Positions 17,842 to 64,000 of a stretch of 64,000 nt of DNA are shown piece by piece. Within the stretch, counting starts at the first letter, position 1, and each line of letters begins with the position of its first letter. Where the stretch lies: IMG/VR virus record IMGVR_UViG_3300018048_001965. One strand, 5' to 3'. A program made the translations under genes and the position numbers. Origin of the DNA: an uncultured virus (IMG/VR IMGVR_UViG_3300018048_001965) (Duplodnaviria > Heunggongvirae > Uroviricota > Caudoviricetes). Below the pieces are notes generated by a model, which was given only the letters and a program-made list of their open reading frames with translations, did no database searches and was not told the origin of the DNA.

Positions 17842-17870
17842 TTGACTTACTAAACAATCTGTGTTATACT
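17842..17870 (+). promoter_or_regulatory. Sigma70-type promoter: TTGACT-N17-TATACT with extended -10 TG
   Basis: -35 box at 17842-17847, -10 box at 17865-17870, 17-nt spacer, TG at 17862-17863. Followed by SD AGGAGG (17881-17886) and ATG 17891. Confidence 0.8.
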
Positions 17871-17890
17871 TAACACTAACAGGAGGTAGT

Positions 17891-18244
17891 ATGGACGAAA
17901 GATTAGAAAAAGCCCTTGACTTTAGCAAGTATATGGTTACGATCAATAATCAAAAACGTATTCTTCAAGAAAAGTTTAAAGAAAGTTTAATATATTTTAC
18001 TGAAGGTTCTCAGTTTACTATTACACGAGAGTTAATTACATTTATAGATTTACTAGTAAAGCAAGGTGCAGATACTGACGTTGTTTTGACTGATGACAAC
18101 GATCGTCCAGTAATGATACCAGACTTGTCTAAGTTTTTAGAAGATATTTTAGATATTTACTTTGAAGCTTCTAACGATTATCATAACAGTTATGTAGCAT
18201 TGGGTAAAAAACGTTCGGTAGAAAAATTAATAGAAAATGACTAA
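17891..18244 (+). CDS. Hypothetical protein (117 aa), first gene of the modification operon
   Basis: The perfect AGGAGG SD supports ATG 17891 over GTG 17861. Overlaps the next gene. Confidence 0.75.
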   Translation: MDERLEKALDFSKYMVTINNQKRILQEKFKESLIYFTEGSQFTITRELITFIDLLVKQGADTDVVLTDDNDRPVMIPDLSKFLEDILDIYFEASNDYHNSYVALGKKRSVEKLIEND

Positions 18245-19079
18245 AGGCGCATTACTATTTGCAAGAAATAACGGATCGCTTGATTATGTAAATCAAGCAC
18301 AATTTTTAGCAAAACGTATACAGAAGTATTTAAATATTCCTACTAGTATAGTTACTGATTCTCCAGACTACTTAGTAGAAAGTTTTGACCGAGGAATATT
18401 TGATAAGATTATTCCTACAGCATGGGAAGTTGTCCAGAATAATAGATTTTACTTTGATGGTACTTTAACACACAAAAAACTTCCTTTTAAAAATGCAGGC
18501 AGAGCACAAGCATATGATCTATCTCCATACGATAGCACATTGTTATTAGATACAGATTATATTATTTCTAATGATTTATTTAAATCCTGTTTTGACAGTC
18601 AATATGATTTAATGATGTTTAAAAATGCAAAAGATTTATCAGGAACACGTAGTGAAGCAGAGTTTAAGTACATAAGTGAGTGTGGTGTTGATTTTTATTG
18701 GGCAACTGTAGTATATTTTACAAAGACTGAATCAAATAAAATATTCTTTGATCTAATTTCACACATACAAGATAATTGGCCTCATTACAGGCGAGTGTAT
18801 CAAATTGACTCTCCGTTATTTAGAAATGACTTTGCATTTAGTATTGCAGCACATATTCTTAATGGTTTTGATGGACTTGATAGTTGTGTACAAGAATTAC
18901 CAGGTACGCATTATTATACAATTGATAAAGATATATGTTTAGAAATTAATGATGATTATATGCAATTTTTGGTTGAACGACCAAAATACTTAGGAGAATA
19001 TCTAGCATTAAGTACTAAAGGAAAAAGTGTTCATATAATGAATAAATTTAGTCTAGAAAGAGTAATTAATGAGCAATAG
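18237..19079 (+). CDS. GT-A fold glycosyltransferase-like protein (GT8-like)
   Basis: SPYDSTLLLDTD (DxD motif), WATVVYF, RNDFAFSIA. Paralogous to the next gene. Confidence 0.65.
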   Translation: MTKGALLFARNNGSLDYVNQAQFLAKRIQKYLNIPTSIVTDSPDYLVESFDRGIFDKIIPTAWEVVQNNRFYFDGTLTHKKLPFKNAGRAQAYDLSPYDSTLLLDTDYIISNDLFKSCFDSQYDLMMFKNAKDLSGTRSEAEFKYISECGVDFYWATVVYFTKTESNKIFFDLISHIQDNWPHYRRVYQIDSPLFRNDFAFSIAAHILNGFDGLDSCVQELPGTHYYTIDKDICLEINDDYMQFLVERPKYLGEYLALSTKGKSVHIMNKFSLERVINEQ

Positions 19080-20502
19080 AGGTATAATAGTTTTAGCACA
19101 AAATAGTTATGAAAGAGTATCGAGACAAATACCTAATCATTTCCTCGAAGAGCAATACAAAGGTATTCATGTAGATATATGGTATCCGGATCTCGACTAT
19201 ATATCTGGTCAGCATGTTTGGTATGATAATAAAGTCTTTAGATTTGTTAATACTTGTTTACAGTCTAAAACATTTAATTATGATGATGTAAAATTAGTAA
19301 TACCTGAAGTCTATATACACTATGACAAAAACGATCTTGTTGTACATCACTTGTGTAAAAAGAATAATATTGTATTATCTGATAATAATATTTACGAAGT
19401 GCGTAAAGAAGATGAAACGCAATTATATACACTGACTCCTCAATTTGAAGGAGTTAACATTGATATTTGGTATAAAGAAGTTTTACATTTAGCAGGTCAA
19501 CATGTTTGGCATAATAACAGAGTGTGGCGTGCTTTAGTTGACGTACCAGCAAATAGTGAGTTTACTGAAGACGATTACGAGCCTATTATTGATCAAGAAG
19601 TTAAATTGTATGCAGACAGTAACAAAAGTTTAGTATTCGAAAACCCACGGCCGGGCAATTTAGTGTGTTATTATAATAATTTATATACAGTTGATCCTGT
19701 ACTACAAGTAGACTATGTTAAACAGGCTGTGTTATTAGCACTGTCTCTAAGTAAAAATAGTCCTAATGAAAAAATATCAATTATTACTAACGATATTGTT
19801 CCTGCAGATTATGAGATATTGTTTGACAAAATTATTCCTATTCCCTTTGGTGATGATGCTGAAACAACTATTTGGAAAGTTGAAAATAGATGGAAAATCT
19901 ATCACTGTAGTCCGTATGATGAAACAATTGTAATGGACACTGATATGATGGTGTTTAATGATCTTACTAGTACGTGGAATATGTTAAGTGATTCAGATTT
20001 ATTCTTTACATCTGAAGTAAGAACATTTAATAATAACGTAATTGAAAATGATTTTTACCGAAAGACATTTACCGAAAACTATTTGCCTAATACATACGTT
20101 GGGGTACATTATTTTAAACAATCAGATCTAGCAAAAAACTTTTATAATTTACTAGAAATTATTTGTAAGAATTGGAAAGAGTTTTGGAAAGAGTTTCTAC
20201 CTAATCAAACACCCGGACATTTGAGTATAGATGTCGCAGCAGCAATTGCAATAAAAATACTTAATATAGAAGAAGAAGTTACAAATAAGAAAAACAATAT
20301 TCTTACATTTACACACTTAAAGCCGATGATACAAGGCTGGAACAATCCGCCAGATAGGTGGCAAGATAAATTAGGCGTATATTTAGATGACAATTGTAAT
20401 TTAAAGTTAGGAAATTTTGTACAAAATGGTATATTGCATTATACCGAAAAAGACTTTGTCGAAAAAGTATTTAACAAATACAAGGAAATAACTTATGTCT
20501 AA
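19069..20502 (+). CDS. GT-A glycosyltransferase-like protein with about 200-aa repeat insertion
   Basis: SPYDETIVMDTD motif. The N-terminal strand GIIVLAQN is separated from VDYVKQA by two repeats of G..DIWY...GQHVW.xN.V.R. Confidence 0.65.
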   Translation: MSNRGIIVLAQNSYERVSRQIPNHFLEEQYKGIHVDIWYPDLDYISGQHVWYDNKVFRFVNTCLQSKTFNYDDVKLVIPEVYIHYDKNDLVVHHLCKKNNIVLSDNNIYEVRKEDETQLYTLTPQFEGVNIDIWYKEVLHLAGQHVWHNNRVWRALVDVPANSEFTEDDYEPIIDQEVKLYADSNKSLVFENPRPGNLVCYYNNLYTVDPVLQVDYVKQAVLLALSLSKNSPNEKISIITNDIVPADYEILFDKIIPIPFGDDAETTIWKVENRWKIYHCSPYDETIVMDTDMMVFNDLTSTWNMLSDSDLFFTSEVRTFNNNVIENDFYRKTFTENYLPNTYVGVHYFKQSDLAKNFYNLLEIICKNWKEFWKEFLPNQTPGHLSIDVAAAIAIKILNIEEEVTNKKNNILTFTHLKPMIQGWNNPPDRWQDKLGVYLDDNCNLKLGNFVQNGILHYTEKDFVEKVFNKYKEITYV

Positions 20503-21382
20503 TTTAATTAATGCAATAACAAAATTAAACAGTTTAATAGCACAAGGAGATATAAGTTATGTGTATTTTGAAAAAACACATGGCGAAGTCTTTGACATTA
20601 CAAATAACCCTATAGATAGCGATTATGATGTTATTGAAGTTAATCATGACGAAGTAAAAGAATATTTTTTAGGTAGAGCAAAAATTAGCGAATATGTAGT
20701 AAAATATAATCATCAACTTAGAGAATACGTAATCGCTAGAGAGGTTGCAACTAGTTTTTTAAAATCAGTTGAAGATTACCTTTATCAAATTCCATTTAAA
20801 GGTAATACATTTGACAACCTAGAAAAGATATACGTTGGTATAGATTTTAGAAAACATAACGCAACTGATTTGTTTTATAAAGGCGATCACGTTTGGGCTA
20901 ATAATAATGTATACAAACTTCATAAAGATTTTACTGTTGAAGATACGTTAGACACTGCTGAACTATTTCTTGAAAATATAGTATCAGTAGATAAAAAATC
21001 TATTCCTTTAATGGCACGAAAAAATAGAAAAGGACATAAAGTTTTAGTTGACAATCAGTTGTATATGATAAATTCGTCTGATGACACTAGTGTATATATT
21101 TTTAAAAATGATATTGCAAAACAATGGCAATTTTATAGCACTAAAGATATTGTTGTAAATGAAAAATTGTTAGACAAGGAAATTACTGATAAGGTTGTTA
21201 TGTTTTTTATCACTGAGCCCGATGATCCTAACATACTAATTCGGACTATTGAAATACCAATTAAAGATTTAATAGACAAGACAAAGTGCATATTTCCGTA
21301 CATGTACAAATCAGAAGAAGAAAATCTTTCGATATTTACACCACGACTTTATCGTAATTATAGATATGAGGTAGTAAAATGA
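20495..21382 (+). CDS. Hypothetical protein carrying one copy of the GxHVW repeat module
   Basis: Contains YKGDHVWANNNVYK and C-terminal FFITEPDDPNILIRTI. Overlaps neighbours on both sides. Confidence 0.6.
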   Translation: MSNLINAITKLNSLIAQGDISYVYFEKTHGEVFDITNNPIDSDYDVIEVNHDEVKEYFLGRAKISEYVVKYNHQLREYVIAREVATSFLKSVEDYLYQIPFKGNTFDNLEKIYVGIDFRKHNATDLFYKGDHVWANNNVYKLHKDFTVEDTLDTAELFLENIVSVDKKSIPLMARKNRKGHKVLVDNQLYMINSSDDTSVYIFKNDIAKQWQFYSTKDIVVNEKLLDKEITDKVVMFFITEPDDPNILIRTIEIPIKDLIDKTKCIFPYMYKSEEENLSIFTPRLYRNYRYEVVK

Positions 21383-22308
21383 ATTCAATTAAAGTAGCAG
21401 ACTATGATGTTATCTTTTTAAGTTACGACGAGCCCAACGCAGAAAAAAACTATGCAGACTTGTGTAGTAAAATACCATGGGCTAAACGTGTCCACGGAGT
21501 AGAAGGCTCGGATGCTGCACACAAGGCTTGCGCAGAATTAAGCGAAACTGATAGATTTATAACTGTAGATGCTGACAATATAGTATATGCTAATTATATA
21601 CAACAAATTATAAATTTTAAACCTGAAGCACAGTTAGATCATAGTGTTGTTAGCTGGTGTGGAAAAAATGTTATAAACGGATTAGTATATGGAAATGGCG
21701 GACTTAAATGTTGGCCAAAGAGTTATGTTCTCAATATGCGTACACATGAAAATGCTGAACCAGGAAATCCGCAAGGTCAAGTTGACTTTTGTTGGGACAT
21801 GCGCTATATCCAAATGAATACTACTTTTAGTGATGTGTATAATAATGCAACTCCACAGCAAGCATGGCGTGCTGGTTTTCGTGAAGGTGTTAAGATGTCA
21901 CTTGATCAGGGAATGAAGCCTGATACAAGTAAACTGTATGACGGATATTGGCAAAATTTACATAGACTTTATATTTGGCAAATGATCGGTGCAGATGTAG
22001 AAAACGGACTATGGGCGATATTTGGTGCAAGACAGGGGTTGTATATGACAATGTGTACAGACTGGAACTTTATAAATGTACGTGACTTTTCGTATTTGAA
22101 TAATTTTTGGAACCAATTAGAAGTTACTGATGAAACACTAATGTCTACAATACAGGATTTAGGTAAAACTTTGATAAAAGAATTAAATATTCCGATATCA
22201 ATATCTCCACTAAGTGATCAACAAAGTAAATTTTTTAAAACAGTTTATCAAGTGCCAAAAAGAATAAACAAAGAACCATTTTTAATTGAGGATAATAATG
22301 ACACCTGA
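21379..22308 (+). CDS. Glycosyltransferase-like protein (GT-A, DAD motif); paralog of 35345
   Basis: YDVIFLSYDEPNA...GVEG...AH, VDADN, YGNGGLK, AWRAGFRE. Confidence 0.6.
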   Translation: MNSIKVADYDVIFLSYDEPNAEKNYADLCSKIPWAKRVHGVEGSDAAHKACAELSETDRFITVDADNIVYANYIQQIINFKPEAQLDHSVVSWCGKNVINGLVYGNGGLKCWPKSYVLNMRTHENAEPGNPQGQVDFCWDMRYIQMNTTFSDVYNNATPQQAWRAGFREGVKMSLDQGMKPDTSKLYDGYWQNLHRLYIWQMIGADVENGLWAIFGARQGLYMTMCTDWNFINVRDFSYLNNFWNQLEVTDETLMSTIQDLGKTLIKELNIPISISPLSDQQSKFFKTVYQVPKRINKEPFLIEDNNDT

Positions 22309-23689
22309 AGTATGGAAAAAAGAAAATCTAGATCCTGTTAGTTGCAGTTTTTGTGTAGCTAAGTGGAAACAAGTTACACTACACCTACATACCGGACAGA
22401 CGCATAGTTGTCATCATCCAGTACCTCACAAAATACCTGTTGAAGAATTAGAAGGTAATTCTAGTGCATTACATAATACAAAATTTAAGAAGTTACAACG
22501 TAAGCAAATGCTCGAAGGTGATAGGCCTAAAGAGTGTGACTATTGTTGGCGTGTAGAAGACAATAACGAAATAAGTGATAGAACATATAAGTCCAAAGAA
22601 CCCTGGGCTGAATCTTATATTCCAGAAATTATTCAAAAACCTTGGGATGATAATGTTAATCCTAGTTATTTAGAAGTAAGTTTTAGTAGTGTGTGTAATT
22701 TCAAATGCTCATACTGTTCACCACAAGTTAGTAGTAAATGGATGGAAGAAGTTCAGAAATACGGACCGTATCCAACTACAACTGCGCATGGCGGTATTGA
22801 TTGGCTTAAAGATCAAGGTGTTATGCCTATCCCAAATAAAGATTACAATCCTTATGTAGAAGCATTTTGGAAATGGTGGCCCGATGTATCAAAGGATCTC
22901 AAACATTTCCGTATTACAGGCGGCGAGCCATTACTTTCTAAAGATACATTTCGAGTACTAGACGATCTTATAGAAAATCCTAGACCAGACCTAGAGTTTG
23001 CTGTCAACAGTAATATGTGTGTTCCAGACGGAGTGTTTAATCGCTTTATGGAAAAAATTAAAATAATCTGTAGCGAAGGCAAGGTTAAGAAATTTAAAAT
23101 ATTTACAAGTGCTGAAGCTACAGGAGCACAAGCAGAATACATTAGACACGGACTAGACTACAACAAATGGTTAGATAATATAAACAAAGTATTAACTGAA
23201 GTTCCAAATTGTACATTTACTAATATGGCAACATATAACTTTTTAAGTTTGTTTAGTTTTAAAAATCTTATTAAAGATATATTAGAAATTAAAGATACAT
23301 ACGGCGGTTGGCAGGCTAAGCACATGCCTATGATACTTGATGTTCCTTATTTGAGACATCCTGGATATCAAGCAGTTGATATTATGCCTGCAAAGTTTAG
23401 AAGATATATATATGATCAGGTTTCTTTAGTATACGATAACATAGAAAACAACGGCTGGTACGAATCAGCTAATAGGAAATTCTTTAATTGGGAAGCCGAA
23501 AAGTTTAGACGTATATATGAAATAACAACATACATCGACGAAGAACACGAAACAAAACCCCATGTAATTAATCATAGAAAAAATTTAATTAGATTTGTTG
23601 ATGAGCATGATAGAAGACGTGGAACTAATTTTCTTAAAACGTTTCCTGAAATGGAAGAAGAATATCATAAATGGAAAAATACTATATGA
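22298..23689 (+). CDS. Radical SAM protein with N-terminal twitch/SPASM-like Cys domain
   Basis: CNFKCSYC and GGEP, with N-terminal FC..KW...SCHH...CDYC. GAGG SD before ATG 22298. Confidence 0.9.
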   Translation: MTPEVWKKENLDPVSCSFCVAKWKQVTLHLHTGQTHSCHHPVPHKIPVEELEGNSSALHNTKFKKLQRKQMLEGDRPKECDYCWRVEDNNEISDRTYKSKEPWAESYIPEIIQKPWDDNVNPSYLEVSFSSVCNFKCSYCSPQVSSKWMEEVQKYGPYPTTTAHGGIDWLKDQGVMPIPNKDYNPYVEAFWKWWPDVSKDLKHFRITGGEPLLSKDTFRVLDDLIENPRPDLEFAVNSNMCVPDGVFNRFMEKIKIICSEGKVKKFKIFTSAEATGAQAEYIRHGLDYNKWLDNINKVLTEVPNCTFTNMATYNFLSLFSFKNLIKDILEIKDTYGGWQAKHMPMILDVPYLRHPGYQAVDIMPAKFRRYIYDQVSLVYDNIENNGWYESANRKFFNWEAEKFRRIYEITTYIDEEHETKPHVINHRKNLIRFVDEHDRRRGTNFLKTFPEMEEEYHKWKNTI

Positions 23690-25062
23690 TATACTTTTTA
23701 TATGACTATGTTTTTCCGGGATATTTTTTACCTAATGCTTTAGAAAGTAATCATGCTGTGTTGAATTACATGCACTCTCAACATAATATAAGCAACGGAT
23801 TTAACGCCTATACTGACCCTAGCGAATCTAATATTAGTAGACAGATATTTAATAATCAGTTAGGAGACTGGCCTAACAGTTGGACAGTAACAAATTTAAA
23901 TGCTTTAGAAGAAGTAACTAGTATAAAACATACTTCATTATTCGAAGGAAAACAAAAGTGTAGTCATTATTTTTATGTTGTTAAGATAAGTCCTCATTTA
24001 GATCAGTTTGCAGCACATGGAGTTAGGCAATTTTCAAAACTTAATGGTAATTATTTTTGGAAGTATATGTCGCAAGAAGCATTAGAAGATGCTCAAAACA
24101 AAAAATGTACTATAATTCTAGATTTAGCTCAGGAAAATTATATCGAAAAACATGAATATGAAAATTTACATAAATGTTTAGAATCGTCCTATATTCCACC
24201 GAGTCAAATTATTTTAGTGTTTAATACACATAATGGCCATAAGATATACGATGAATGGTTTGAACCCCATGAACGAAAGATTCAAGTGCGTGATTGGCCG
24301 TTTGTTATGTGGAACAGTAGTAAATATTATTCAAAAACTGGTCGATGGGATTCAGAGTTAGAAAAAAGTAGAAAACGTCCTTTTAGATTTTTAATGAAAA
24401 TAAAAAGTCCTAGAAATCATCGACAAGCACTTCTGTATTCTTTATATTGTGAACAAATTTTAGATCGCGGTGATTGGAGTTATCTATCTGAAAAAACCTC
24501 GCTAAATGATCAAATGTTAAAACATGTTAAGATTGAATGGAGTTTAGATTACGATGTCGAAACAGAGTCATTGGTTAATTTATTTCCAAAAAAACTTGCC
24601 GACGAGCCCGATACTACTATGAATACTGTAAGTGCATGGACTGATCGAACACGAGAACCTTATAGAAATAGTTATTTTTATATATGCACAGAAACATACT
24701 ATCATGGAGATCATAAATCATTAACTGAAAAAGTTTTTAAACCGATAGGAAACTATCATCCTTTCTTTTTCTTTTCTTTCAAGGGTGCATTACAGCATTT
24801 AAGAGATTTAGGATTTAAAACTTTTAGTCCTTGGATAGACGAGTCGTATGATAATGAAAAAGTTGCACACAAGCGTTTAAAAATGATAGTTTCAGAAGTC
24901 AAACGATTATGCGAAATGTCCGAAGATGAAATATATACATGGTATTGGGAAATGCAAGATATTTTAGAACACAATAGAGAGCACTTAATAAAGATTTATG
25001 AGTCAGAGCCTTTAACTAAAGACTTTGTAAATTTCTTGGAAGCAAAAGCAAATGAGCTATAA
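23671..25062 (+). CDS. Putative glycosyltransferase-like protein (GT-B/GT10-like C-terminus); paralog of 26912
   Basis: ET....LTEKVFKPI...HPF.....G.L..LRDLGFKTF...IDESYD motif. The start may be ATG 23686. Confidence 0.5.
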   Translation: MEKYYMIYFLYDYVFPGYFLPNALESNHAVLNYMHSQHNISNGFNAYTDPSESNISRQIFNNQLGDWPNSWTVTNLNALEEVTSIKHTSLFEGKQKCSHYFYVVKISPHLDQFAAHGVRQFSKLNGNYFWKYMSQEALEDAQNKKCTIILDLAQENYIEKHEYENLHKCLESSYIPPSQIILVFNTHNGHKIYDEWFEPHERKIQVRDWPFVMWNSSKYYSKTGRWDSELEKSRKRPFRFLMKIKSPRNHRQALLYSLYCEQILDRGDWSYLSEKTSLNDQMLKHVKIEWSLDYDVETESLVNLFPKKLADEPDTTMNTVSAWTDRTREPYRNSYFYICTETYYHGDHKSLTEKVFKPIGNYHPFFFFSFKGALQHLRDLGFKTFSPWIDESYDNEKVAHKRLKMIVSEVKRLCEMSEDEIYTWYWEMQDILEHNREHLIKIYESEPLTKDFVNFLEAKANEL

Positions 25063-25582
25063 AAATCAAAAATGGAACGAATGGATAGTTTCGCATCTTA
25101 ATACGTTTGGCAAACAAGTTCCAATTTATAAACCTTCTGTATATCGTGAATACAGAGGAGAAATTTTTACAACTTATCATTCTAGCGACCATCCTGTAAC
25201 AGAAATTATTTCTAAAGACAGCGAAGTTCACGGAAGATTTAGTAAGTCTTACAAAGGTGTATTAAGAGGCTTGCATTATGATGATAAGACTTATAAACTT
25301 GTACAAGCTCTTGTAGGTGATATCTATTTAGTTGTTCTTGATCTTAAAACAGGTAAGTGGGAATCTTATATACTATCAGAAAAGACTAGAGATCAAGTTT
25401 TAATACCTCCTGGGTACGCTAACGGTCACTATGCACTAACAGATTGTATATTCCATTATAATATGTTCTACGAAGGCGACTATGTAGACGAAAAGAATCA
25501 AGGTGTTATTAAGTGGAACGATCCTCGATTTAGAATAGAGTGGCCTACAACAGATCCTATTTTACAAGAAAGAGATAGATGA
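25052..25582 (+). CDS. rmlC: dTDP-4-dehydrorhamnose 3,5-epimerase-like
   Basis: S.KGVLRGLH, GDIYLVVLD, IPPGYANG, WNDP...IEWP. Confidence 0.85.
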   Translation: MSYKNQKWNEWIVSHLNTFGKQVPIYKPSVYREYRGEIFTTYHSSDHPVTEIISKDSEVHGRFSKSYKGVLRGLHYDDKTYKLVQALVGDIYLVVLDLKTGKWESYILSEKTRDQVLIPPGYANGHYALTDCIFHYNMFYEGDYVDEKNQGVIKWNDPRFRIEWPTTDPILQERDR

Positions 25583-30824: not shown

Positions 30825-30829
30825 AATAT

Positions 30830-38250: not shown

Positions 38251-38275
38251 TTCTTTTCCTTTAAATTTAACAAGT

Positions 38276-49025: not shown

Positions 49026-49041
49026 ATAAATATTTATATGA
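49022..49041. promoter_or_regulatory. Perfect 20-bp palindrome TCATATAAATATTTATATGA acting as a bidirectional late promoter
   Basis: TATAAATA on + (49025-49032) and on - (49038-49031), each followed 5 nt later by ATG. Confidence 0.7.
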
Positions 49042-55782: not shown

Positions 55783-55811
55783 TTAATTTCCTCTACGGAA
55801 ATACTTATGTT

Positions 55812-56372
55812 TTATAAATTAGTTTCTATGTTAAATCGAACACTTAATAAGTATCTAGGGTGTTTTGAAAAATTTGTAACACTATGTGGTGTAGTTACTT
55901 TTACAACTTTTGGTTTATCTATAGAACACTCGTCTATAACTTTAGGATTACCTATCCATATTGGTCTTAAATGTTGCGAATCATCTGCTGGTAAATTTGG
56001 TTTATTTGTAGGAGTTGCGTATCCAATGTCATAATTACTATCATACCAATACATTGTTGTATCTTGGCAATTAAATATAGGAATATTTAATGCCCAATGT
56101 TGATCCGGTGTAGGAGGATTATGTCCATCTATATGAACTCGTAAACTTTCATTTCCGCTTAACCCACCTAGCACACATATTTTAATTTTTGGATCTTCTG
56201 AGAATATATCGATGATATCATCTATAATTTTTTCTCGTAACCAGATGATATCATTGTCTGTTTTATCAAATACTGTTATTGATTGCCCGATTAGATCTTT
56301 ATTAATATACTTGCTAAAACGTTCCTGTATATCTATAAAATTTTTTAAATCTATATCATAGTGTAAGGGCAT
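55812..56372 (-). CDS. Cupin/2OG oxygenase-like protein
   Basis: HIDG...ALNIP...PHSV.N...R..LS.RF. Confidence 0.55.
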   Translation of the reverse strand: MPLHYDIDLKNFIDIQERFSKYINKDLIGQSITVFDKTDNDIIWLREKIIDDIIDIFSEDPKIKICVLGGLSGNESLRVHIDGHNPPTPDQHWALNIPIFNCQDTTMYWYDSNYDIGYATPTNKPNLPADDSQHLRPIWIGNPKVIDECSIDKPKVVKVTTPHSVTNFSKHPRYLLSVRFNIETNL

Positions 56373-57031
56373 TAATATTCTACGACTGGAACTTCTTGTC
56401 TTTTATTTGTAGGATATAAAATTTCATCGTCAACTTGATGTTTTCTGCGGCTTACACCTTCTTGTTTAAACCCTACACCCATTATCAATAAAGGATCATT
56501 CTCTAAATTTAGTGCTTCTTTAACTTTTACATGATCCATACTTAAACAACAACCAGTTGCATAACCTAACATCTGAGCAGTTAAATTTAAATAACCAGAA
56601 ACTATACCTAAAGCTACATTTTTATCAAAATCTTTCGGTTCGTCAGCAATTCTTTTTTCTTTAAAGTGTGATTCTACTTTATAATAGTCTTCAAAAACTA
56701 CAACAAGATTTGCTAATGTTTGACTTTGTGTAGCATCTCCCATTTCGTGATATTTGTCTTCGTCTCGTGGATGCGGATCAACTATTTTAGTACCATCTTC
56801 TGCAATAGCGTACGGTGCACCGTGTGTTGCTGCGTGTACTTTTTCGATAGTCTCTCTATCTTGTATAAAGTGAACCTTATAGAATGCCACATTTTGTAAA
56901 CTAGGAGCTTGTGTTAAGCTTGTTTTAAGTATGTCTAAATCTTCTTGAGGTATTACTTTATCTAAATCCCAATTACGCTGACAGTGTTGGCTGCGAATTA
57001 TAGCTTTGCTTAAATTTTTTCTTATGTCCAT
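56372..57031 (-). CDS. Nitroreductase-family flavoprotein
   Basis: QRNWD...IP.ED, APS.QN, G.....L.A..LGYATG, IMGVG. AGGAG SD. Confidence 0.7.
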   Translation of the reverse strand: MDIRKNLSKAIIRSQHCQRNWDLDKVIPQEDLDILKTSLTQAPSLQNVAFYKVHFIQDRETIEKVHAATHGAPYAIAEDGTKIVDPHPRDEDKYHEMGDATQSQTLANLVVVFEDYYKVESHFKEKRIADEPKDFDKNVALGIVSGYLNLTAQMLGYATGCCLSMDHVKVKEALNLENDPLLIMGVGFKQEGVSRRKHQVDDEILYPTNKRQEVPVVEY

Positions 57032-57073: not shown

Positions 57074-58156
57074 ATGTTCCATTTTAACGAGCTAACACAA
57101 ATCCATCTTGAAATTACAAATCGCTGTCAAGCAAGCTGTCCTATGTGTAATAGAAATATTAGAGGCGGTTTAGATAATCCTTTAATAAAGAATAATGATT
57201 GGACAGTATCTGATTTTAAGAAAATTTTATCTCACAGTGTTTTAGATAAAATCACTGGTTTTTATTTCTGTGGAAATTTTGGCGATCCTATTATTAATAA
57301 TGATTTAATAGATATGTGCAAATATGCAGTAGAGTATAAACCTGAAATAAACATCGCTATACATACAAATGGTAGCGCACGTACTACACAGTGGTGGGAA
57401 TTGTTAGCCCAAACATTACCCAAAGATAGTAGAGTAGTTTTTGCACTGGATGGTTTAGCCGATACACATTCATTATATAGGATCGGTACTAGTTTTGAAA
57501 AAATTATTTCAAATGCTCGGGCATTTATTAATGCAGGAGGAACTGCTGAATGGTGTTTTATTAAATTTAAACATAACGAGCACCAAGTAGGAGAAGCAGA
57601 AAAATTAGCAAAAGAAATGAAATTTAAACATTTTTCAGTAAAGAATAGTAGTCGATTTATCGGTGAACCAAAATATGCTGTTTTAGATTCAAATGCAACT
57701 ACTACACATTATATAGAACCTCCTAGTGATAACAAGATGTCTTTTATAAGTAACGATGTTATTAAAAACTATAAAGAAATAGTTAATAATAGTGAGATAA
57801 ATTGTTATGTTTTACACACGAAGGAAATATATATTGATGCTAATAGGATAGTATATCCTTGTTGTTATCTTGCAAGTGTGCCGTTTACAAATATACCAAA
57901 AGATGAGACAACTCAGGCTCGAATAGATATAAGAACACAGCACGAAGAATATATTACAGATCTTGGCGGATATGATAATATTAATTCTTTACAAAAATCT
58001 ATCGAAGATATTGTAAATGCAAAGTTATGGCATACAGTTTGGAACAAATACTGGTTTAAACAAAAAATGATTACCTGTGCAAGAAGTTGTGGCACAATTA
58101 AAGAAATATCAAAACCTTATGAGCAGATTGTTACTACGGAAACTATAAATGGATAA
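57074..58156 (+). CDS. Radical SAM protein with C-terminal SPASM/twitch domain
   Basis: CQASCPMC, GNFGDP, TNG, and C-terminal C...YIDA...YPCC...C...C. Confidence 0.9.
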   Translation: MFHFNELTQIHLEITNRCQASCPMCNRNIRGGLDNPLIKNNDWTVSDFKKILSHSVLDKITGFYFCGNFGDPIINNDLIDMCKYAVEYKPEINIAIHTNGSARTTQWWELLAQTLPKDSRVVFALDGLADTHSLYRIGTSFEKIISNARAFINAGGTAEWCFIKFKHNEHQVGEAEKLAKEMKFKHFSVKNSSRFIGEPKYAVLDSNATTTHYIEPPSDNKMSFISNDVIKNYKEIVNNSEINCYVLHTKEIYIDANRIVYPCCYLASVPFTNIPKDETTQARIDIRTQHEEYITDLGGYDNINSLQKSIEDIVNAKLWHTVWNKYWFKQKMITCARSCGTIKEISKPYEQIVTTETING

Positions 58157-59531
58157 AATTAAATCTTACCAAACTGAAATTAAAAAAGTAAGTGGTAGTG
58201 ATACGTTTTGTGTTCTTCCTTGGATACACTTAGCAACTCGACCAAATGGTGATATGCGATTATGTTGTACAGCAAATGCTAGTGGAGCAGGCGAAGACCA
58301 TGAAGTTGGTTTAATAAAAGGAGACGACGGTCGTCCTGCAAACTTTGCTAAGACTACTCCTATGGAAGCGTGGAACAATCAATATATGCGTAATGTAAGA
58401 TTAGATATGCTTAACGGAAATAAACCAGCAAGTTGTATGGGATGTTATAAAGAAGAAGAACAAGGAATTGTTAGTAAACGTATATGGGAAACTGGAACGT
58501 GGTATAAAGACGAAGGTATAGATATACCAGATCTTATTAAACAAACTGAAGAAGACGGCACTGTTCCTGAACAATTGCAATATTTAGATTTAAGGCTTGG
58601 TCATACTTGTAACATTAAATGTGTAATGTGCAGTCCGCACGATAGTTCTAAATGGGTACAAGATTGGAAGCTGCTGTATCCCCAGTTAGAAAATCCTGAA
58701 GTAAAACAACAAATGGGCTGGGAGAAAAAAGAATTTAATAATAAGTGGCATGAAAAGGACACATTTTGGGGAGAGTTATATAAACAAATTCCTAATTTAA
58801 AACAAGTATATTTTGCAGGCGGCGAGCCTTTAATGATAAAAGAACATAAAATGTTTATTAAAGAAATTATCCGCCAAGGCTATCAATCTAGTATATTGCT
58901 AAGATATAACTCTAATGGATTATTAGTAGATAATGAACTTATTGATCTGTGGAGTAAATTTAGAAAAGTAAAGTTTGCAGTAAGTGTTGATGCAATAGAA
59001 CAGCGAGATGATTATATAAGATATCCAACTAAATTTGACGAAGTAAGTCGTACACTACATTTATTAGATTCAACACCTGATAATATACATGTTAGTATGG
59101 CAACCGCAGTACAAATTTTTAACATTAAACATCTACCAGATTTTATAAAATGGAAAGTTAATCAAAATTTTAAAAAAATGAATGTTGGTTTAGTTGGTGG
59201 AGTTCTTATGGGAGGCGGTTTAGTAAATATGCACTTGGTACATATACCTACATTTTTAAATATTACAATACTTCCAAAAGAAGATAAAGAAGATGTACAC
59301 CGTAGATTTGCAGATTTTAAAGAGTGGCTTTGGAATAACTATACTCAAGATGACGATTATTGGAATGTTAATCCTTATGGTTGGAGACGCTGGGAAGCAT
59401 TACTAGAACATATGGATTCGGTTGATAATAGTTATAGGCTTAGCGGTTTTAAAGAATATGTAACTAAATTAGATAAAATAAGAAATCTAAACGCCGCTTC
59501 TGTATTTCCTGAACTGGCACACTTGTTATGA
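58149..59531 (+). CDS. Radical SAM protein with N-terminal twitch domain
   Basis: FCVLPW...G..RLCC...CMGC, then CNIKCVMC and AGGEP. Confidence 0.9.
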   Translation: MDKIKSYQTEIKKVSGSDTFCVLPWIHLATRPNGDMRLCCTANASGAGEDHEVGLIKGDDGRPANFAKTTPMEAWNNQYMRNVRLDMLNGNKPASCMGCYKEEEQGIVSKRIWETGTWYKDEGIDIPDLIKQTEEDGTVPEQLQYLDLRLGHTCNIKCVMCSPHDSSKWVQDWKLLYPQLENPEVKQQMGWEKKEFNNKWHEKDTFWGELYKQIPNLKQVYFAGGEPLMIKEHKMFIKEIIRQGYQSSILLRYNSNGLLVDNELIDLWSKFRKVKFAVSVDAIEQRDDYIRYPTKFDEVSRTLHLLDSTPDNIHVSMATAVQIFNIKHLPDFIKWKVNQNFKKMNVGLVGGVLMGGGLVNMHLVHIPTFLNITILPKEDKEDVHRRFADFKEWLWNNYTQDDDYWNVNPYGWRRWEALLEHMDSVDNSYRLSGFKEYVTKLDKIRNLNAASVFPELAHLL

Positions 59532-60442
59532 AGTTAACAAAAATTATAACAACACGACCTTACAACGAATTAGATATCACATTCTGGCCAACTGATATTT
59601 GTAACTTTAATTGTTCATATTGCTTTCCGGGTAGTAAGGATGGCATATATAGATTTGAAAAAAATTTAGATATTGTATTAAACAAATTTAAAAAGTTATT
59701 TGCAGATTATTCTTCGATAGGTAAAGATAAATTTAATATTACTATAGCAGGCGGAGGTGAACCTACACTTTGGCCTATACTTGATCAATTTTGTTCTCAA
59801 ATTACATTATTAGAAAATGTAAAAATTCAACTAGTAACAAATGGTAGTAGAACTTTAAAGTGGTGGAGTAATAATGCAAAATATTTAGATAAGGTACATT
59901 TAAGTTGTCATTCTGAAGACGTTGATATAGATCATTTTATTAATGTTGCAGACGTACTTACACAAAAAGGCACTGAAGTTACGGCAATGATGCTTATGGA
60001 TGCAAAACGTTGGGATCTCTGTGTTAGTTATATTGATAAGATGCAACATAGTAAAGAACAATGGAAAATTTTAGCCAAAGAAGTAGTTGCTGCGCCTGGA
60101 CATGATATAGATAGTTATACTAATGAACAACTAGAATACATAAAACGTTCTACTAAAAGATTTGTATTTTTTGAAAAGGATATAAGCGAATACAGGACAG
60201 TAGAAAGTTTAGGATTTTATGATGACAAATCTTTTCCTGCATATAATAATACCTATATAGCAAACAAACAAAATTATTTTAAAGGTTGGAACTGTAATAT
60301 GCCTGTTGAACGGATAAGTGTCGACGCAGGACTTAATATAAAAGGAAGTTGTGGAGTAAACTTTGATAAACTAGACTCTATTATTTGCCCGCTAGACTGC
60401 TGTGATTGTCAACCTGATACACATATTACTAAGTTTATTTAA
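59528..60442 (+). CDS. Radical SAM protein
   Basis: CNFNCSYC, GGGEPT, TNG, and C-terminal GW.C...C...CP..CCDC. Confidence 0.9.
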   Translation: MKLTKIITTRPYNELDITFWPTDICNFNCSYCFPGSKDGIYRFEKNLDIVLNKFKKLFADYSSIGKDKFNITIAGGGEPTLWPILDQFCSQITLLENVKIQLVTNGSRTLKWWSNNAKYLDKVHLSCHSEDVDIDHFINVADVLTQKGTEVTAMMLMDAKRWDLCVSYIDKMQHSKEQWKILAKEVVAAPGHDIDSYTNEQLEYIKRSTKRFVFFEKDISEYRTVESLGFYDDKSFPAYNNTYIANKQNYFKGWNCNMPVERISVDAGLNIKGSCGVNFDKLDSIICPLDCCDCQPDTHITKFI

Positions 60443-61322
60443 ATTTTGTTAAAGGAATATCAGCAGCACAAGTACAAAATTTACGTGTGCAGTCTATATA
60501 CTCGGTAGGGCGTGTAAAACTACCGTTGTAAATGTTACCTAAACTACCTCCTACTCGACAAGTTGCTCTATGTACTTCACCGTCCCAATTTATCATTAAA
60601 CTTTCAATGCCAGCAGCACACTTCCATCCCTCAAATTGATTACGTTTTGTTTTAATTATGTCATTAGCATGTGCTAGTTCTTCTTCGTCAACAACACAAT
60701 TTGGTTTTGCAGTTGCATTTACACTTAACAGCCATTCTAAGTCCTGTGCATCATATCGCATATCGTCAAACCAGTCATGCTTCTCTGTCCATCTAATTCT
60801 ACGTAATGCAAACGGAATACCATACCCTACTAACCGTGCTGTTGCTTCTTTTACTCTTTTCATATGGTCATGATGAGCCATTACATTTACATGAAAGGGT
60901 ATCTTCTGTGTATTCTGCTGATTAAACCAAAGTATGTTGCCTAATGCTCTTGTCCAACTTTCGTTGTCAAAGTGTAAACTAAAAACATAATGATCAACTG
61001 GTGCTTCTGCATACCATACAGGTTTTCGTAATCCGTTAGTTGTTATATTGACCCAACTTAGTTTTGATTTTGTATGTTTAACTAATTCTTCGAAGTGAGG
61101 ATGTACTGTTGGTTCTCCGCCTGTAAAACTAATTCTCACAGGTTTATCAAATTCTTCTAATATGTCAACTGTATTTTTTAATGTATCTATATTAGTGTGT
61201 GGAGATGTCATGTCGTGTATCTCAGGAGGACAATACGCACAGTCTAAATTACAACGCTTTCCGAGGTTCCATTCAATTTTAACAGAGTCTTGATGCGGCC
61301 ACCTACTAGTTACTTTATACAT
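60435..61322 (-). CDS. Radical SAM protein with C-terminal twitch-like domain
   Basis: CNLDCAYC, TGGEPT, GWKCAAG...C....CTC. The start is probably ATG 61322 (AGGAG upstream); the track gives 61331. Confidence 0.9.
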   Translation of the reverse strand: MYKVTSRWPHQDSVKIEWNLGKRCNLDCAYCPPEIHDMTSPHTNIDTLKNTVDILEEFDKPVRISFTGGEPTVHPHFEELVKHTKSKLSWVNITTNGLRKPVWYAEAPVDHYVFSLHFDNESWTRALGNILWFNQQNTQKIPFHVNVMAHHDHMKRVKEATARLVGYGIPFALRRIRWTEKHDWFDDMRYDAQDLEWLLSVNATAKPNCVVDEEELAHANDIIKTKRNQFEGWKCAAGIESLMINWDGEVHRATCRVGGSLGNIYNGSFTRPTEYIDCTRKFCTCAADIPLTKFK

Positions 61323-62619
61323 AAGGAGCAAACTCAGGGTTAGAATCTAAAAAACTTTGATTGCGAGTCTTGTCTAAAGCACGATTAAAATTTATACAAT
61401 CTTGCCAATACTCACTTAGATCTCTTGCTTTTAAAAAATTAATGTTGTCGGCCACTTGCCTCTCAGTAATAGGTATAAGCACAGGATGATCTCGTACAAT
61501 CGGATAATCACGGAAGGTCTCTTGTATGGTTTGTAAGTTTTCAATTACTTTCTCCTTTAATGCATTAGGCAATGTTTGTGCGCTTAATGGGCGTGGATAG
61601 TTTACTCTATGCGAATAAAACACAATGCCCATTTCGTTTAAAAAGTAATCTATTACTTTGTCAATTTGCATAATATTATTTGCTTGTACAGTAAACGCAC
61701 CTACTACTCTATTTACATTAGGAAAGCTTTTAAACACTTTTACATTTTCTTCAACTTCTGTAAAATCACCATTACCTCTAATATATTCATATGTGTCGTG
61801 TATACCGTCTATGCTTACATTTACAGCAATGCTACGAAACTTAGGCCAATAGTCGTGTATAGTACGTCCGCCTTTTATGCCTAGCGTAGTGCCGTTAGTA
61901 GCATATTTTAGTTCAATGTTGTCTCCATACTCTGCAAGTCTGTCTAGTATCTTATAGTGGTACGGATCCATTAACGGCTCACCACCTGCAAATTCTACAC
62001 GTCTAAAGTGTGGTAGTAATTTCTCAAATGATGACCACCAGTTGTCTGAGTTATCAAACGGGCCAATATATTTGCCCGGAGTGTCAGTAAGTTTGTCGAT
62101 AATTGGAATTAAGATATTGTTTTCTTTTTCGTAAAAAGGCTTTACTTCATTCCAGTCTTTCCAACTAGTTGAATCAAGTGGGTTACACATTCGACATTTT
62201 AAATTACATAGATTGTTTAGTTTAATTTCCATAGTAGGAAGTTCAAACGGCATTGTAAAATCGTCTTGTAGTGCATCTAACGCATCTGGATATAAGTTTA
62301 TACGTGCTTCGGGTATTACTCCTGCTATATGACGCTGTCGTAAGCTCTCTACACCCTGATCTTCTAAATCAAAACACGGCTTGCAAACATCAGGTCGTTC
62401 GTTGTTTAACACTTGCTGGCGAACTTCTTGCATGGATTTATTATTCCATGCATCTTCTAAAGATTCGTTTTGGATATAACCGATCGGCTGGCTACGGCAG
62501 CACACTTTTATAGCACCGTCTTCTCGTGTTGCTAAACCTGTAAAAGGGTGCATACAAAATGTACAACTATTTGATTTGATCAATAGCCCATTCTCTCTCT
62601 TTACACCAAAAACATTCAT
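61315..62619 (-). CDS. Radical SAM protein with N-terminal twitch domain
   Basis: FCMHPF...G.IKVCC...CKPC, then CNLKCRMC and AGGEP. The start is uncertain. Confidence 0.9.
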   Translation of the reverse strand: MNVFGVKRENGLLIKSNSCTFCMHPFTGLATREDGAIKVCCRSQPIGYIQNESLEDAWNNKSMQEVRQQVLNNERPDVCKPCFDLEDQGVESLRQRHIAGVIPEARINLYPDALDALQDDFTMPFELPTMEIKLNNLCNLKCRMCNPLDSTSWKDWNEVKPFYEKENNILIPIIDKLTDTPGKYIGPFDNSDNWWSSFEKLLPHFRRVEFAGGEPLMDPYHYKILDRLAEYGDNIELKYATNGTTLGIKGGRTIHDYWPKFRSIAVNVSIDGIHDTYEYIRGNGDFTEVEENVKVFKSFPNVNRVVGAFTVQANNIMQIDKVIDYFLNEMGIVFYSHRVNYPRPLSAQTLPNALKEKVIENLQTIQETFRDYPIVRDHPVLIPITERQVADNINFLKARDLSEYWQDCINFNRALDKTRNQSFLDSNPEFAPYV

Positions 62620-63238
62620 TACATATTGGAACAGACTGGCCTGGTGTATATGTTAAATAATCTATTTCGTCAAACTCACCTTCGCAACTTCTAGTTAAGT
62701 TTAGTAAGTCCTTAATATTATGTTCGTAGTATTGTTTTATAATCCAGTCTTTACTAGTATACACGAAAGGATGTAAAATGTCAACCCCCATATGCTTCAT
62801 ATGTAATGGTAAAACTCCTTCGTTACGTTCAGGAAGTGCGCCGGGTATATCTATATCTGGATTTTTGTTAACAGCAGCATACCATGCATCTAAATTATAA
62901 GTATGTGCCACCCATTCGTTATGAGCTCGTAATATTATTCTATTTCCAGGTTTAAGTGCTCCGTATTCGTCGGTAATAAATGTTGTATTAGGTTCTTCCA
63001 TTTCTGGAGGAATAAAATTTTCTATATGTTCTATAGGATTTTTAAACCTTTGTCGGAACCATTCCACAACTTCGATAGCAATATACCTTTGCCATGGTCG
63101 AGTTTTCCAACAACGTATTTGTGTAGTAAAGTATATTTCTGCATTAGTTTGTGATAATATAAGATATGATAATAACGCACTATCGGCACCGCCACTTAAA
63201 CTTATTCCTATACGTTTCCAGTTTTTGCTAACATCCAT
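62567..63238 (-). CDS. PP-loop ATPase, QueC-like
   Basis: SLSGGADS PP-loop, HPF...K, and TRSC...C..CFWC.ER zinc-site pattern. Confidence 0.7.
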   Translation of the reverse strand: MDVSKNWKRIGISLSGGADSALLSYLILSQTNAEIYFTTQIRCWKTRPWQRYIAIEVVEWFRQRFKNPIEHIENFIPPEMEEPNTTFITDEYGALKPGNRIILRAHNEWVAHTYNLDAWYAAVNKNPDIDIPGALPERNEGVLPLHMKHMGVDILHPFVYTSKDWIIKQYYEHNIKDLLNLTRSCEGEFDEIDYLTYTPGQSVPICNECFWCKEREWAIDQIK

Positions 63239-63242
63239 ATTT

Positions 63243-63271
63243 TATTTACTTAAATTAGAGACATATAAATA
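63243..63271. promoter_or_regulatory. Divergent late promoters: TAAATA on - (63243-63248) and TATAAATA on + (63264-63271)
   Basis: They lie 4 nt before ATG 63238 and 5 nt before ATG 63277 respectively. Confidence 0.6.
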
Positions 63272-63276
63272 TGTTT

Positions 63277-63948
63277 ATGATAAAAGATACACAATATAGT
63301 GTTGATACAAAATTTATCGATCAAGCACTCGACACTACAGATTTTAATACAGGTAAACATACATTAAACAACCCTACTGGTGATTTTTTCTATGATCCTT
63401 GGGAAATATCTCCTAAGTACAAAGGAACAGTGTGGGATTGGATATTAAGTACGCTTAGAGAACCACACGGTGAAGCAAGAATTATTACAATGGAAAGTAA
63501 GAGTAACTATGTTGGTCATAGTGATATTGATGATAGATGGCATCTAAATCTTAGCGGAATAGATTGTTATTTAATTGACATTAGTAATGAAACTATGCAT
63601 AAATGTGTAAAAGACGGCAAGTGGTATTTAATGGATACAGGTGTTATACACTCAGCAGCTAATTTTGGTAATAGATACAGGCACCAGTTAGTCGTAAGAA
63701 AATTATTAAATAAAGTTAATATAACTGAAACTAAAACAATAAGAATTGTTCCTTTAATAAAAGATTTAGACGAAGTTCGATACGAATTTGATAAAAATTT
63801 AAGTCCTGTTTTAAATAAAGCAAATAAACAATATCAAATAAGCGATTTTAGATTAGAGAATGGATTACCCGTATTCAAGTGCGGGCAACTACTTTCTACT
63901 ATAATTAAAAATAACTTAGGTACTTGTTTAGGAATGGAGACAGAATGA
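63277..63948 (+). CDS. Asp/Asn-hydroxylase-like cupin oxygenase
   Basis: GEARII, HSDIDDRWHL, HSAANFG...R. The start is 63277 or 63271; the latter overlaps the promoter box. Confidence 0.65.
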   Translation: MIKDTQYSVDTKFIDQALDTTDFNTGKHTLNNPTGDFFYDPWEISPKYKGTVWDWILSTLREPHGEARIITMESKSNYVGHSDIDDRWHLNLSGIDCYLIDISNETMHKCVKDGKWYLMDTGVIHSAANFGNRYRHQLVVRKLLNKVNITETKTIRIVPLIKDLDEVRYEFDKNLSPVLNKANKQYQISDFRLENGLPVFKCGQLLSTIIKNNLGTCLGMETE

Positions 63949-64000
63949 AACTTTTTATCGATAACTTAGCAGATAGAATAGATCTAGATGCGCTTATAGA
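63945..64000 (+). CDS. Start of next gene (3' truncated), MKLFIDNLADRIDLDALI...
   Basis: ATGA overlap with the previous stop, GGAG SD, and the frame is open to the window end. Confidence 0.55.
   Translation, partial: MKLFIDNLADRIDLDALI

Follow-up and report, generated by a model that had tools for sequence, protein, structure and literature searches.

A hypervariable island of radical SAM enzymes, glycosyltransferases, and sugar-tailoring genes behind the tail fibres of a putative jumbo phage

What does a phage build with 13 radical S-adenosylmethionine (SAM) enzymes, six glycosyltransferases, and a set of sugar-nucleotide genes encoded directly behind its tail fibres? The question is raised by a 64-kb stretch of DNA (the window), which corresponds to bases 2495-66494, read on the minus strand, of an 88,136-bp IMG/VR virus record (IMGVR_UViG_3300018048_001965). 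The island under study covers 52 open reading frames (ORFs) of the window, from 17861 to 63948. Our answer, the foremost of several readings and still a tentative one, is a late cytoplasmic system that builds and tailors a glycan on a soluble acceptor, most likely the fibre or other virion proteins of the phage itself. We favour it because the enzymes are soluble, their operons carry late-type motifs, and the genes are linked to those of the fibres.

The island is tightly packed. Of the 51 consecutive ORF pairs, 39 share a strand and overlap or abut, and intergenic DNA amounts to 636 b of the whole window (about 1%), in agreement with the roughly 50 tightly coupled genes of an earlier note on this DNA. 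That note had also placed the island beside the tail-fibre module, and it is indeed found directly behind the fibre genes in the window, in a 127.6-kb related record (G001), and in other relatives. To judge from gene content, the island is a conserved core with two inserted cassettes (23671-35352 and 37579-57031), since the gene order is shared with relatives in which cassette genes are missing. Behind the fibre genes, all four larger related records (G002-G005, with 15, 10, 6, and 6 Radical_SAM matches) carry homologues of g17861, g18237, g19069, g21379, a g23671-like gene, g35342, g35982, and g36995, in this order. It continues in all four with g57074 and g58149, then g60435 and g61315, and last g62567 and g63271. 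The homologues of g36995 and g57074 abut in the four relatives, where cassette 2 is absent, and most genes of cassette 1 have no homologue in these records. Among 76 non-identical related loci, each with a flank of at most 10 kb, g36995 recurs in 76, g60435 in 67, g35982 in 66, g57074 in 65, g61315 in 59, g35342 in 52, and g59528 in 41, while nine genes of the 37579-57031 block recur in none. The synteny comparison proposed in the earlier note thus reveals a core of GT8-like and GT-A glycosyltransferases and about six radical SAM enzymes kept behind the fibre genes. This core is widespread: g58149 has 134 relatives among viral contigs (identity of 72-100% among the 80 listed), and the g21379 family reaches at least 8000 clusters in public metagenomes, some of them marine. 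A g21379 homologue is carried by a single one of 50,697 cultured phage records, that of the Ralstonia jumbo phage RsoM2USA.

The core opens on the plus strand with g17861 (17861-18244), a protein of 127 aa with no functional call, which has homologues in G002-G005 and is 38% identical to that of RsoM2USA. Then come two GT8-like GT-A glycosyltransferases, g18237 (18237-19079), which is glycogenin-like, and g19069 (19069-20502), followed by g20495 (20495-21382), with no functional call, and g21379 (21379-22308), a GT-A fold protein with a DGD (DxD) motif. The first radical SAM enzyme, g22286 (22286-23689), belongs to the N-terminal-twitch family, has the motif CNFKCSYC, and is 39% identical to its RsoM2USA homologue. 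Between the cassettes stand, on the same strand, g35342 (35342-36031), a GT-A protein 40% identical to g21379, the small radical SAM enzyme g35982 (35982-36998; Pfam, 45.6 bits), and g36995 (36995-37597), in which a methyltransferase-like Rossmann motif is visible by eye only and whose PDB profile match is not significant (E 0.64). After cassette 2 come five radical SAM enzymes, of which g59528 is not counted in the core: g57074 (57074-58156, plus strand; 32.1 bits), the N-terminal-twitch protein g58149 (58149-59531, plus), the small g59528 (60442 being its end, from 59528, plus; 49.4 bits) and g60435 (60435-61331, minus; 48.9 bits), and a further N-terminal-twitch protein, g61315 (61315-62619, minus). 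Last come g62567 (62567-63238, minus), a PP-loop ATPase-like protein with a C-terminal Cys cluster, and g63271 (63271-63948, plus), a hydroxylase-like protein with HxD...H.

Cassette 1 has 16 ORFs in 11.7 kb, all on the plus strand. Its transfer and radical genes are the GT-B glycosyltransferase g23671, its paralogue g26912, and the B12 radical SAM enzyme g28225. Sugar genes encode a short-chain dehydrogenase/reductase (SDR)-type epimerase/dehydratase (g30830), an HldE-II-like nucleotidyltransferase (g33608), and an HldE-I-like PfkB kinase (g33924). The others are RmlC-like g25052, SGNH-like g25579 and g32183, the two parts of a split E1-type thiamine enzyme (g26282, alpha; g33090, beta), the cupin g34709, the HAD phosphatase g35065, and g29724 and g31759, for which there is no functional call. 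Cassette 2 has 21 ORFs on both strands in 19.5 kb. It starts with the hydroxylase-like g37579 and includes SGNH-like g38353 and g52730, the Zn-ribbon radical SAM enzyme g39241, a KedN5-like B12 radical SAM enzyme (g40416), and three tandem B12-type paralogues (g44619, g46073, and g47551; 44619-48987, minus strand), which are 44-49% identical. A class III aminotransferase dependent on pyridoxal phosphate (PLP), g42348 (42348-43586, plus; Pfam Aminotran_3, E 3.6e-42), adjoins the pentein-fold amidinotransferase g43552 (43552-44622, minus). The cassette further encodes a 2-oxoglutarate (2OG) oxygenase (g49038), a methyltransferase (g49640), a nitroreductase (g56372), the hydroxylase paralogues g52201, g53466, g54017, g54528, g55081, and g55812, and g51407, with no functional call. 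In its midst lies the fibre-tip-like gene g50293 (50293-51249, plus), of which residues 29-113 are 35% identical (E 2e-7) to the C-terminal part of a fibre-like protein with an Mtd_N domain encoded beyond the window. About 20 ORFs of the island matched neither PHROGs nor Pfam (E up to 5).

When would these genes be expressed? The window has 21 copies of the motif ATAAATA, of which 9 touch intergenic DNA (1% of the total). Copies facing both ways lie in the divergent gap between g47551 and g49038 (49026-49037), and others start at 9379, 14279, 38277, 38282, 39227, 57060, and 63265. The motif precedes the island operons of g37579, g38353, g47551, g49038, g57074, and g63271, as well as g9405, the fibre gene g14311, gp6, the Mtd_N fibre gene, and a hydroxylase operon beyond the window. 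The consensus of T4 late promoters is TATAAATA. The genes of gp47, gp55, a 5'-3' exonuclease, and DUF2201 have clear sigma-70-type promoters (TTGACA-N17-TATAAT), unlike the structural and island operons with ATAAATA. On the strength of this motif, late transcription of the island operons, alongside that of the fibre genes, is probable. Parts of the fibre genes and of g21379, g22286, g28225, and g32183-g33608 are matched at 99-100% identity by contigs from three RNA libraries of salt marshes.

Late-type promoters sit poorly with the idea of an island for DNA hypermodification, by which glycosylated or other decorated bases would protect the phage genome from host nucleases, as such modification is needed during replication. 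The earlier note saw no replication or DNA-binding genes here, and Pfam scans of the island proteins likewise returned no such family, nor any of nucleotide metabolism. TGT/DpdA and QueD were found in none of three partial records, and a ThyA-family gene in none of five, all records being 20-44% complete; the ThyA-family genes of RsoM2USA lie more than 100 kb from its module. As for a 7-deazaguanine set, FolE is encoded outside the island, the QueC-like and QueE-like matches are weak, and QueD and TGT were found in none of three records (24-44% complete). The QueC-like protein is g62567, with invariant SGGxDS and CxxCxxC (PHROG QueC-like, E 8e-8; Pfam QueC, E 0.012). We regard DNA hypermodification as rather improbable.

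Where the pathway would act can be approached through the solubility of its enzymes. A Kyte-Doolittle scan with 19-residue windows gave no convincing transmembrane segment in the 52 island proteins, the one marginal window being in g58149. Hence, the island encodes no flippase, polymerase, ligase, or lipid-carrier transferase, and none was found by Pfam among the 52 proteins; the membrane component and the Pfam families of a Wzx/Wzy- or ABC-type O-antigen or capsule cluster are equally absent from them. These results bear on the published reading for pelagimyophage and cyanophage islands, by which the surface glycan of the infected cell (lipopolysaccharide (LPS) O-chain, core, or capsule) is remodelled with odd nucleotide sugars and transferases, blocking the adsorption of competitors. 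PMC7029224 favours modification of the O-chain, and PMC9123017 says likewise for LPS genes of cyanophage-like jumbo phages. The HldE-like genes and GT8-like proteins of the island would fit such remodelling, as would a fatty-acid desaturase at its far end. However, the lack of any membrane protein or lipid-carrier step, the late-type motifs at operon starts, and a core that stays tied to fibre genes even where the hosts of the phages differ widely all argue against it. Remodelling of the cell surface thus seems unlikely to us, and a soluble acceptor is favoured.

The enzymes that would serve this acceptor include six glycosyltransferases supported by fold or profile; the earlier note counted about seven. 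These calls rest on folds and profiles, since no GT-like protein of the island matched a glycosyltransferase family in PHROGs or, at E up to 5, in Pfam. A profile of g18237 and g19069 searched against the PDB had only glycogenins among its matches (19 of 19, best E 0.03), with Pfam GT8 unmatched. The DxD motif and a C-terminal His are invariant in nine aligned sequences of this type, and a protein language model (Atlas) proposed GT8/Mannosyl_trans3 for g18237 with high confidence. GT-A folds with a DxD motif are accompanied by the two-Rossmann GT-B fold, which supports g23671. In Foldseek searches with the glycosyltransferase models, the top neighbours are enzymes with protein substrates (SunS/ThuS, PBCV-1 A64R, GtfA, and SdgB). 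The structural neighbours of g21379 include A64R and Mimivirus R699, and for the GT-B model the resemblance extends to T4 DNA glucosyltransferases and WaaG.

Two of these transferases have further particularities. Residues 15-215 of g19069 (19111-19713) form a 200-residue N-terminal insertion of two repeats with the motif GQHVW..N.V.R. The repeat recurs in g20495 (E about 1e-6, within a small local set), resembles CBM5/12 by eye only, and matched g20495 alone, with no match among the virion proteins. Many relatives of g21379 (P0002, P0046, and others) have a length of about 538 aa, roughly that of g21379 and g35342 added together, which suggests fused two-domain forms.

A sugar-nucleotide set accompanies the transferases, with an HldE-I-like kinase, an HldE-II-like nucleotidyltransferase, a HAD phosphatase, a cupin, an SDR dehydratase/epimerase, and an RmlC-like epimerase. 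Together with the aminotransferase g42348, the amidinotransferase g43552, and the methyltransferase g49640, whose family matches we recovered, these are the sugar-making and tailoring functions announced by the earlier note. The amidinotransferase matches HsvA (E 9e-23) and StrB1 (E 5e-18) in the PDB, and also AGAT and SxtG; the homology is full-length, and its C-terminal GGIHCMT aligns with the GSFHCAT of HsvA, which contains the catalytic Cys. Four SGNH-like proteins, as many as in the earlier note, have the GCS motif of block I, read by eye (g25579, g32183, g38353, and g52730), and g25579 alone has a weak Pfam match (E 0.0025). PDB profile searches with g62567 (E 0.87), g36995 (E 0.64), and g29724 (E 0.24) were uninformative.

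These functions could also be seen as making a free small molecule, aminoglycoside- or nucleoside-like, to be released or used inside the infected cell. Pathways of this sort typically use B12 radical SAM enzymes, aminotransferases, and dTDP-sugar-type enzymes, and relatives are known from those of streptomycin (StrB1, for the amidinotransferase) and caprazamycin (Cpz10, for the hydroxylases). Yet the island has no exporter, resistance gene, or membrane protein, six glycosyltransferases exceed what such a pathway needs, and the tight conserved linkage to fibre genes would be left unexplained. We find a free product very improbable.

The radical SAM enzymes are the most conspicuous part of the island. 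CxxxCxxC occurs in exactly 13 of the 59 proteins of the window, and all 13, as anticipated in the earlier note, match Pfam Radical_SAM (PF04055), 10 of them above the cut-off in protein scans. A six-frame search of the contig gave 14 matches, 13 of them above the cut-off, with the fourteenth gene lying just beyond the end of the window. The NCBIfam family NF033640 (N_Twi_rSAM, of no known function, cut-off of 170 bits) matches g58149 (396 bits), g22286 (336.6 bits), and g61315 (326 bits) above its cut-off. Five enzymes had been called cobalamin-type. All five (g28225, g40416, g44619, g46073, and g47551) match B12-radical-SAM families of NCBIfam, in each case below the cut-off, and only g28225 passes that of the Pfam B12-binding domain (PF02310), which matches three others below it. 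The call for g46073 rests on its 44-47% identity to two paralogues.

Outside the island, we found radical SAM genes in other settings. For the bacterial context of the N-twitch family, a single-protein scan of the genome_contigs collection gave no relative. Vibrio phage K566 (OZ196521) has five clustered radical SAM ORFs resembling the N-twitch enzymes of the island, near NAMPT and ribonucleotide reductase genes; no gene is annotated as tail fibre in the 31 kb examined, and the island glycosyltransferases are not shared. The 159.6-kb record G002 has a second group of five Radical_SAM matches (C1:114900-122700), about 80 kb from its fibre-linked island. An identification as viperin was rejected, as the best match had 52 bits against a cut-off of 180 for NF038283 and covered only the N-terminal core.

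Finally, nine His-triad (HxD...H) hydroxylase-like proteins were found in the window, in line with the roughly nine of the earlier note. One is a 2OG-FeII_Oxy_5 protein by Pfam (g49038), seven (g52201, g53466, g54017, g54528, g55081, g55812, and g63271) belong to a profile (A2) of 12 paralogues that includes five from beyond the window, and g37579 was assigned by 35% identity to one A2 member. In the PDB, A2 matches the caprazamycin hydroxylase Cpz10 (7v4f, E 1.7e-7), and its H165 is invariant and H114 near-invariant in the 12 paralogues, as in Fe(II)/2OG beta-hydroxylases. An analogy to collagen hydroxylation and glycosylation was dropped: the scanned proteins of the window and extension, fibre-like ones included, have no run of at least five G-x-y triplets.

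With so many such enzymes, fibre or virion proteins might be modified directly by the radical SAM, hydroxylase, and methyltransferase battery, in the style of proteusin maturation, with sugars being secondary. The mix may resemble that of polytheonamide maturation: it has three tandem B12 radical SAM paralogues, twitch/SPASM radical SAM enzymes, 14 Asp/Asn-hydroxylase-like enzymes, a methyltransferase, and a nitroreductase, and the fibre-tip-like gene lies amid them. However, no precursor peptide or leader was recognised, the gaps total 636 b and hold one ORF of 65 aa, and Cpz10, the only solved relative of the hydroxylase profile, has a small molecule as its substrate. The presence of six glycosyltransferases and of a complete sugar-nucleotide route further argues for sugars as central, which makes this reading improbable. 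The 65-aa ORF (51234-51431, minus strand) occupies the greater part of the widest gap (157 b), where the minus-strand hydroxylase operon ends.

We come back to a late cytoplasmic system for a glycan on a soluble acceptor, which could work in three stages. The enzyme families, their solubility, the synteny, and the promoter motif are observed; the order of the stages and the substrates of the radical SAM enzymes are what we infer. First, nucleotide-activated sugars would be made by the kinase, phosphatase, and nucleotidyltransferase, following the logic of ADP-heptose synthesis, with the dehydratase/epimerase and the RmlC-like epimerase. The sugars would then be edited: the split thiamine enzyme may add a two-carbon branch, amination would be followed by amidination, six cobalamin radical SAM enzymes would methylate carbons and eight further ones perform other radical chemistry, about 14 small Fe/2OG enzymes would hydroxylate, and the SGNH proteins would handle acyl groups. 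Last, the six soluble glycosyltransferases would attach the products to a cytoplasmic acceptor, putatively the fibre or other virion proteins encoded nearby, and swaps of enzyme cassettes between close relatives would diversify the decoration. The fibre target is supported by the position of the core behind fibre genes in 4 of 4 larger relatives and in RsoM2USA, by the fibre-like gene that closes the island, and by the fibre-tip-like gene within it. A more specific version, which we hold possible if somewhat doubtful, is that the receptor-binding fibres of the phage are chemically hypermodified, first with phage-made sugars and then by radical SAM methylase, hydroxylase, and amidino edits to sugar or protein. 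If true, virions of near-identical strains would come to differ in surface chemistry through cassette swaps, the viral equivalent of O-antigen diversity in bacteria, and host range could change or defences be evaded without a change in fibre sequence.

Several points weigh against the proposed system. The identity of the acceptor rests on inference, as no result pinpoints it, and the HldE-like genes could simply feed the LPS core of the host. The late-promoter reading hangs on a T4 consensus, and the RNA-library contigs may derive from DNA. About 15 ORFs of the island are without any assignment, and no radical SAM enzyme of the island has a characterised close relative, the best PDB matches having E-values of 0.094 (g58149) and 0.00083 (g46073, to RimO). 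The glycan or surface decoration suggested in the earlier note is partly supported: the content of the island is one of glycan-building and tailoring enzymes, and the product would sit on the virion, the infected cell, or DNA.

Which phage carries this island? Upstream of the window lie T4-type genes encoding an SbcD-like gp47, the late sigma factor gp55, gp53, the gp5 hub, gp25, a 1198-aa gp6, and then a virion protein of 4723 aa that enters the window. Its C-terminal 3125 aa (1-9379, plus strand; phrog_10938, 1099 bits) hold the place of VrlC in pelagimyophages (as described in PMC7029224). The fibre module follows (9405-17824, plus) with g9405, g10019 (tail collar domain; Pfam Collar, E 4e-15), g12385, g14311, and the paralogues g15846 and g16862, identified by PHROG tail-fibre families and paralogy. 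The T4-like baseplate genes upstream bear out the phage origin claimed in the earlier note. The nearest relatives of gp6 are those of the jumbo phages Phosso, SCTP-2, Atu_ph07, and PA5oct (identity of 33-35%), homologues of island proteins are found on metagenome contigs of up to 363 kb, and the record, classed as linear, has a CheckV completeness of 24%, that is, a genome of about 367 kb. By these genes, the source is an uncultured giant T4-like (jumbo) phage of coastal waters, near-identical DNA being present in 14 salt-marsh, estuary, and coastal seawater runs, which contain at least 97% of the words sampled from it. As a hint only to the host, the phage HemJ is 44-51% identical to alphaproteobacterial proteins; the photosystem family PF00124, another possible clue, was found in none of five partial related records. 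A 3.1-kb contig binned in a Polynucleobacter MAG encodes a HemJ 96% identical to that of the phage; it is probably a piece of phage DNA that was placed in the bacterial bin.

The earlier note had warned that the contig might join a tail module and an island of different origins. The record G001 shares the contig end at 100% identity and matches 14001-24000 of the window, where fibres meet island, as a single collinear block with 100% identity. As diverged relatives keep this junction too, the contig is not chimeric. GC content is even along the window (0.30-0.38). The window differs from the genome record at 20 single bases between 4357 and 62323, and at 20091 and 26381 the RNA-library contigs carry the letter of the genome record.

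In G001 the island runs about 8 kb beyond the end of the window, for a total of about 54 kb and 64 genes. The extension has the fourteenth radical SAM gene, five more hydroxylase-like paralogues, an SGNH-like gene, the fatty-acid desaturase, and a weakly sulfotransferase-like gene, and the island closes at the 485-aa fibre-like protein with the Mtd_N domain. The middle of this protein (L085:10746-12203) consists of GN-x-T/S-rich repeats with many N-x-T/S triplets, which may only be a beta-helix repeat. Past the island, G001 encodes a CobT/S-like pair, the 5'-3' exonuclease, HemJ, GTP cyclohydrolase I, heme oxygenase, and DNA polymerase B. The auxiliary genes of its first 31 kb (1-31000) include a HemJ-type UPF0093 protein, heme oxygenase, GTP cyclohydrolase I, and a phosphoribosyltransferase, and a second small sugar set (cytidylyltransferase, PMM, UDP-glucose dehydrogenase, and epimerase) lies there beside DNA polymerase B.

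The phage spends about 15% of its estimated 367-kb genome on this island. Its core gene family is very common in public metagenomes, yet no product has been reported for any such phage island. If the virion is the target, its enzymatic decoration would be of a complexity not yet reported for phages, and a new layer of phage-host specificity; if it is the cell surface or DNA, the exclusion or anti-restriction system would be unusually elaborate. Many radical SAM families of the island are uncharacterised, and its genes probably include a route to guanidino sugars. Because a cultured phage, RsoM2USA, carries a minimal module, the question is experimentally reachable.

How does the island compare with known systems? 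In virion glycosylation as represented by PBCV-1 A64R, the capsid and tail glycans of mycobacteriophages, and the fibril clusters of Mimivirus, viral glycosyltransferases and sugar pathways also decorate the virion. These three systems are not known to include radical SAM enzymes. Virion glycosylation in mycobacteriophages is cited in PMC12619734. The aminotransferase next to an amidinotransferase recalls the streptidine branch (StrB1) and HsvA, in a context that is here of phage glycan type and not that of an antibiotic cluster. We found no function assigned in the literature to any phage island of radical SAM enzymes and glycosyltransferases, be it of pelagimyophages, Campylobacter phages, or this lineage.

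The T4-like Campylobacter phages CP220 and CPt10 have 11-12 radical SAM genes, with a swappable cluster of about 10 kb that holds five of them and an amidinotransferase; their authors guessed at a boost to host metabolism (Timms et al. 2010, PMC2853527). In the CP220 annotation, the cluster stands behind baseplate hub and PAAR genes and is followed by two nucleotide-diphospho-sugar-transferase-like genes. Distant homology to island genes is seen in the amidinotransferase (E 1e-24 at 25% identity) and in two radical SAM enzymes (E 3.5e-17 with g57074, 25% identity; E 8e-12). Unlike the island, the 19 kb of CP220 that we examined have no B12 radical SAM enzymes, hydroxylase array, or sugar-nucleotide genes, and the glycosyltransferase profiles A3 and A4 had no match in CP220 proteins.

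RsoM2USA (MG752970) has homologues of g17861, g18237, g19069, g21379, g22286, g35342, and g36995 in the same order, 28-44% identical and directly after a fibre-like gene. It has a single radical SAM gene in 343.8 kb, within this compact module, and no cassettes, and the module genes are annotated as hypothetical (PMC8504454). The word "radical" is absent from that paper and from two others on aquatic jumbo phages (PMC12619734 and PMC9123017). Downstream of the module, the locus at 24-41 kb has a long run of hypothetical ORFs of about 200 aa; their attribution to the hydroxylase family was rejected for lack of an A2 match.

The closest parallel is the host recognition cluster (HRC) of pelagimyophages, which follows the VrlC gene, has a mean length of 44.6 kb, and includes fibres, GT8 enzymes, rfaE, and radical SAM cassettes (Zaragoza-Solas et al. 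2020, PMC7029224, as for the following statements on this cluster). Like the island, the cluster of pelagimyophages and cyanomyophages is hypervariable and lies in the structural region after a giant protein at the VrlC position. The likeness extends to fibre genes, GT8-type glycosyltransferases, rfaE-like genes, and Asp/Asn beta-hydroxylase-like genes, and to close relatives that differ by radical SAM cassettes. Genome sizes differ: those with the HRC have 132-164 kb and SAR11 hosts, whereas the present lineage is estimated at about 367 kb and is nearest to jumbo phages by gp6. The radical SAM enzymes receive two sentences there, with no enzyme-level analysis. The window has the same arrangement, with a hypervariable island after a giant baseplate protein, fibres, glycosyltransferases, and variable cassettes. 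The neck gene gp14, which bounds the cluster at its far side, does not appear in the DNA covered. The island is thus an extreme jumbo-phage variant of a kind already described, if mechanistically unexplained, and represents the enzyme-rich part of an HRC-type island.

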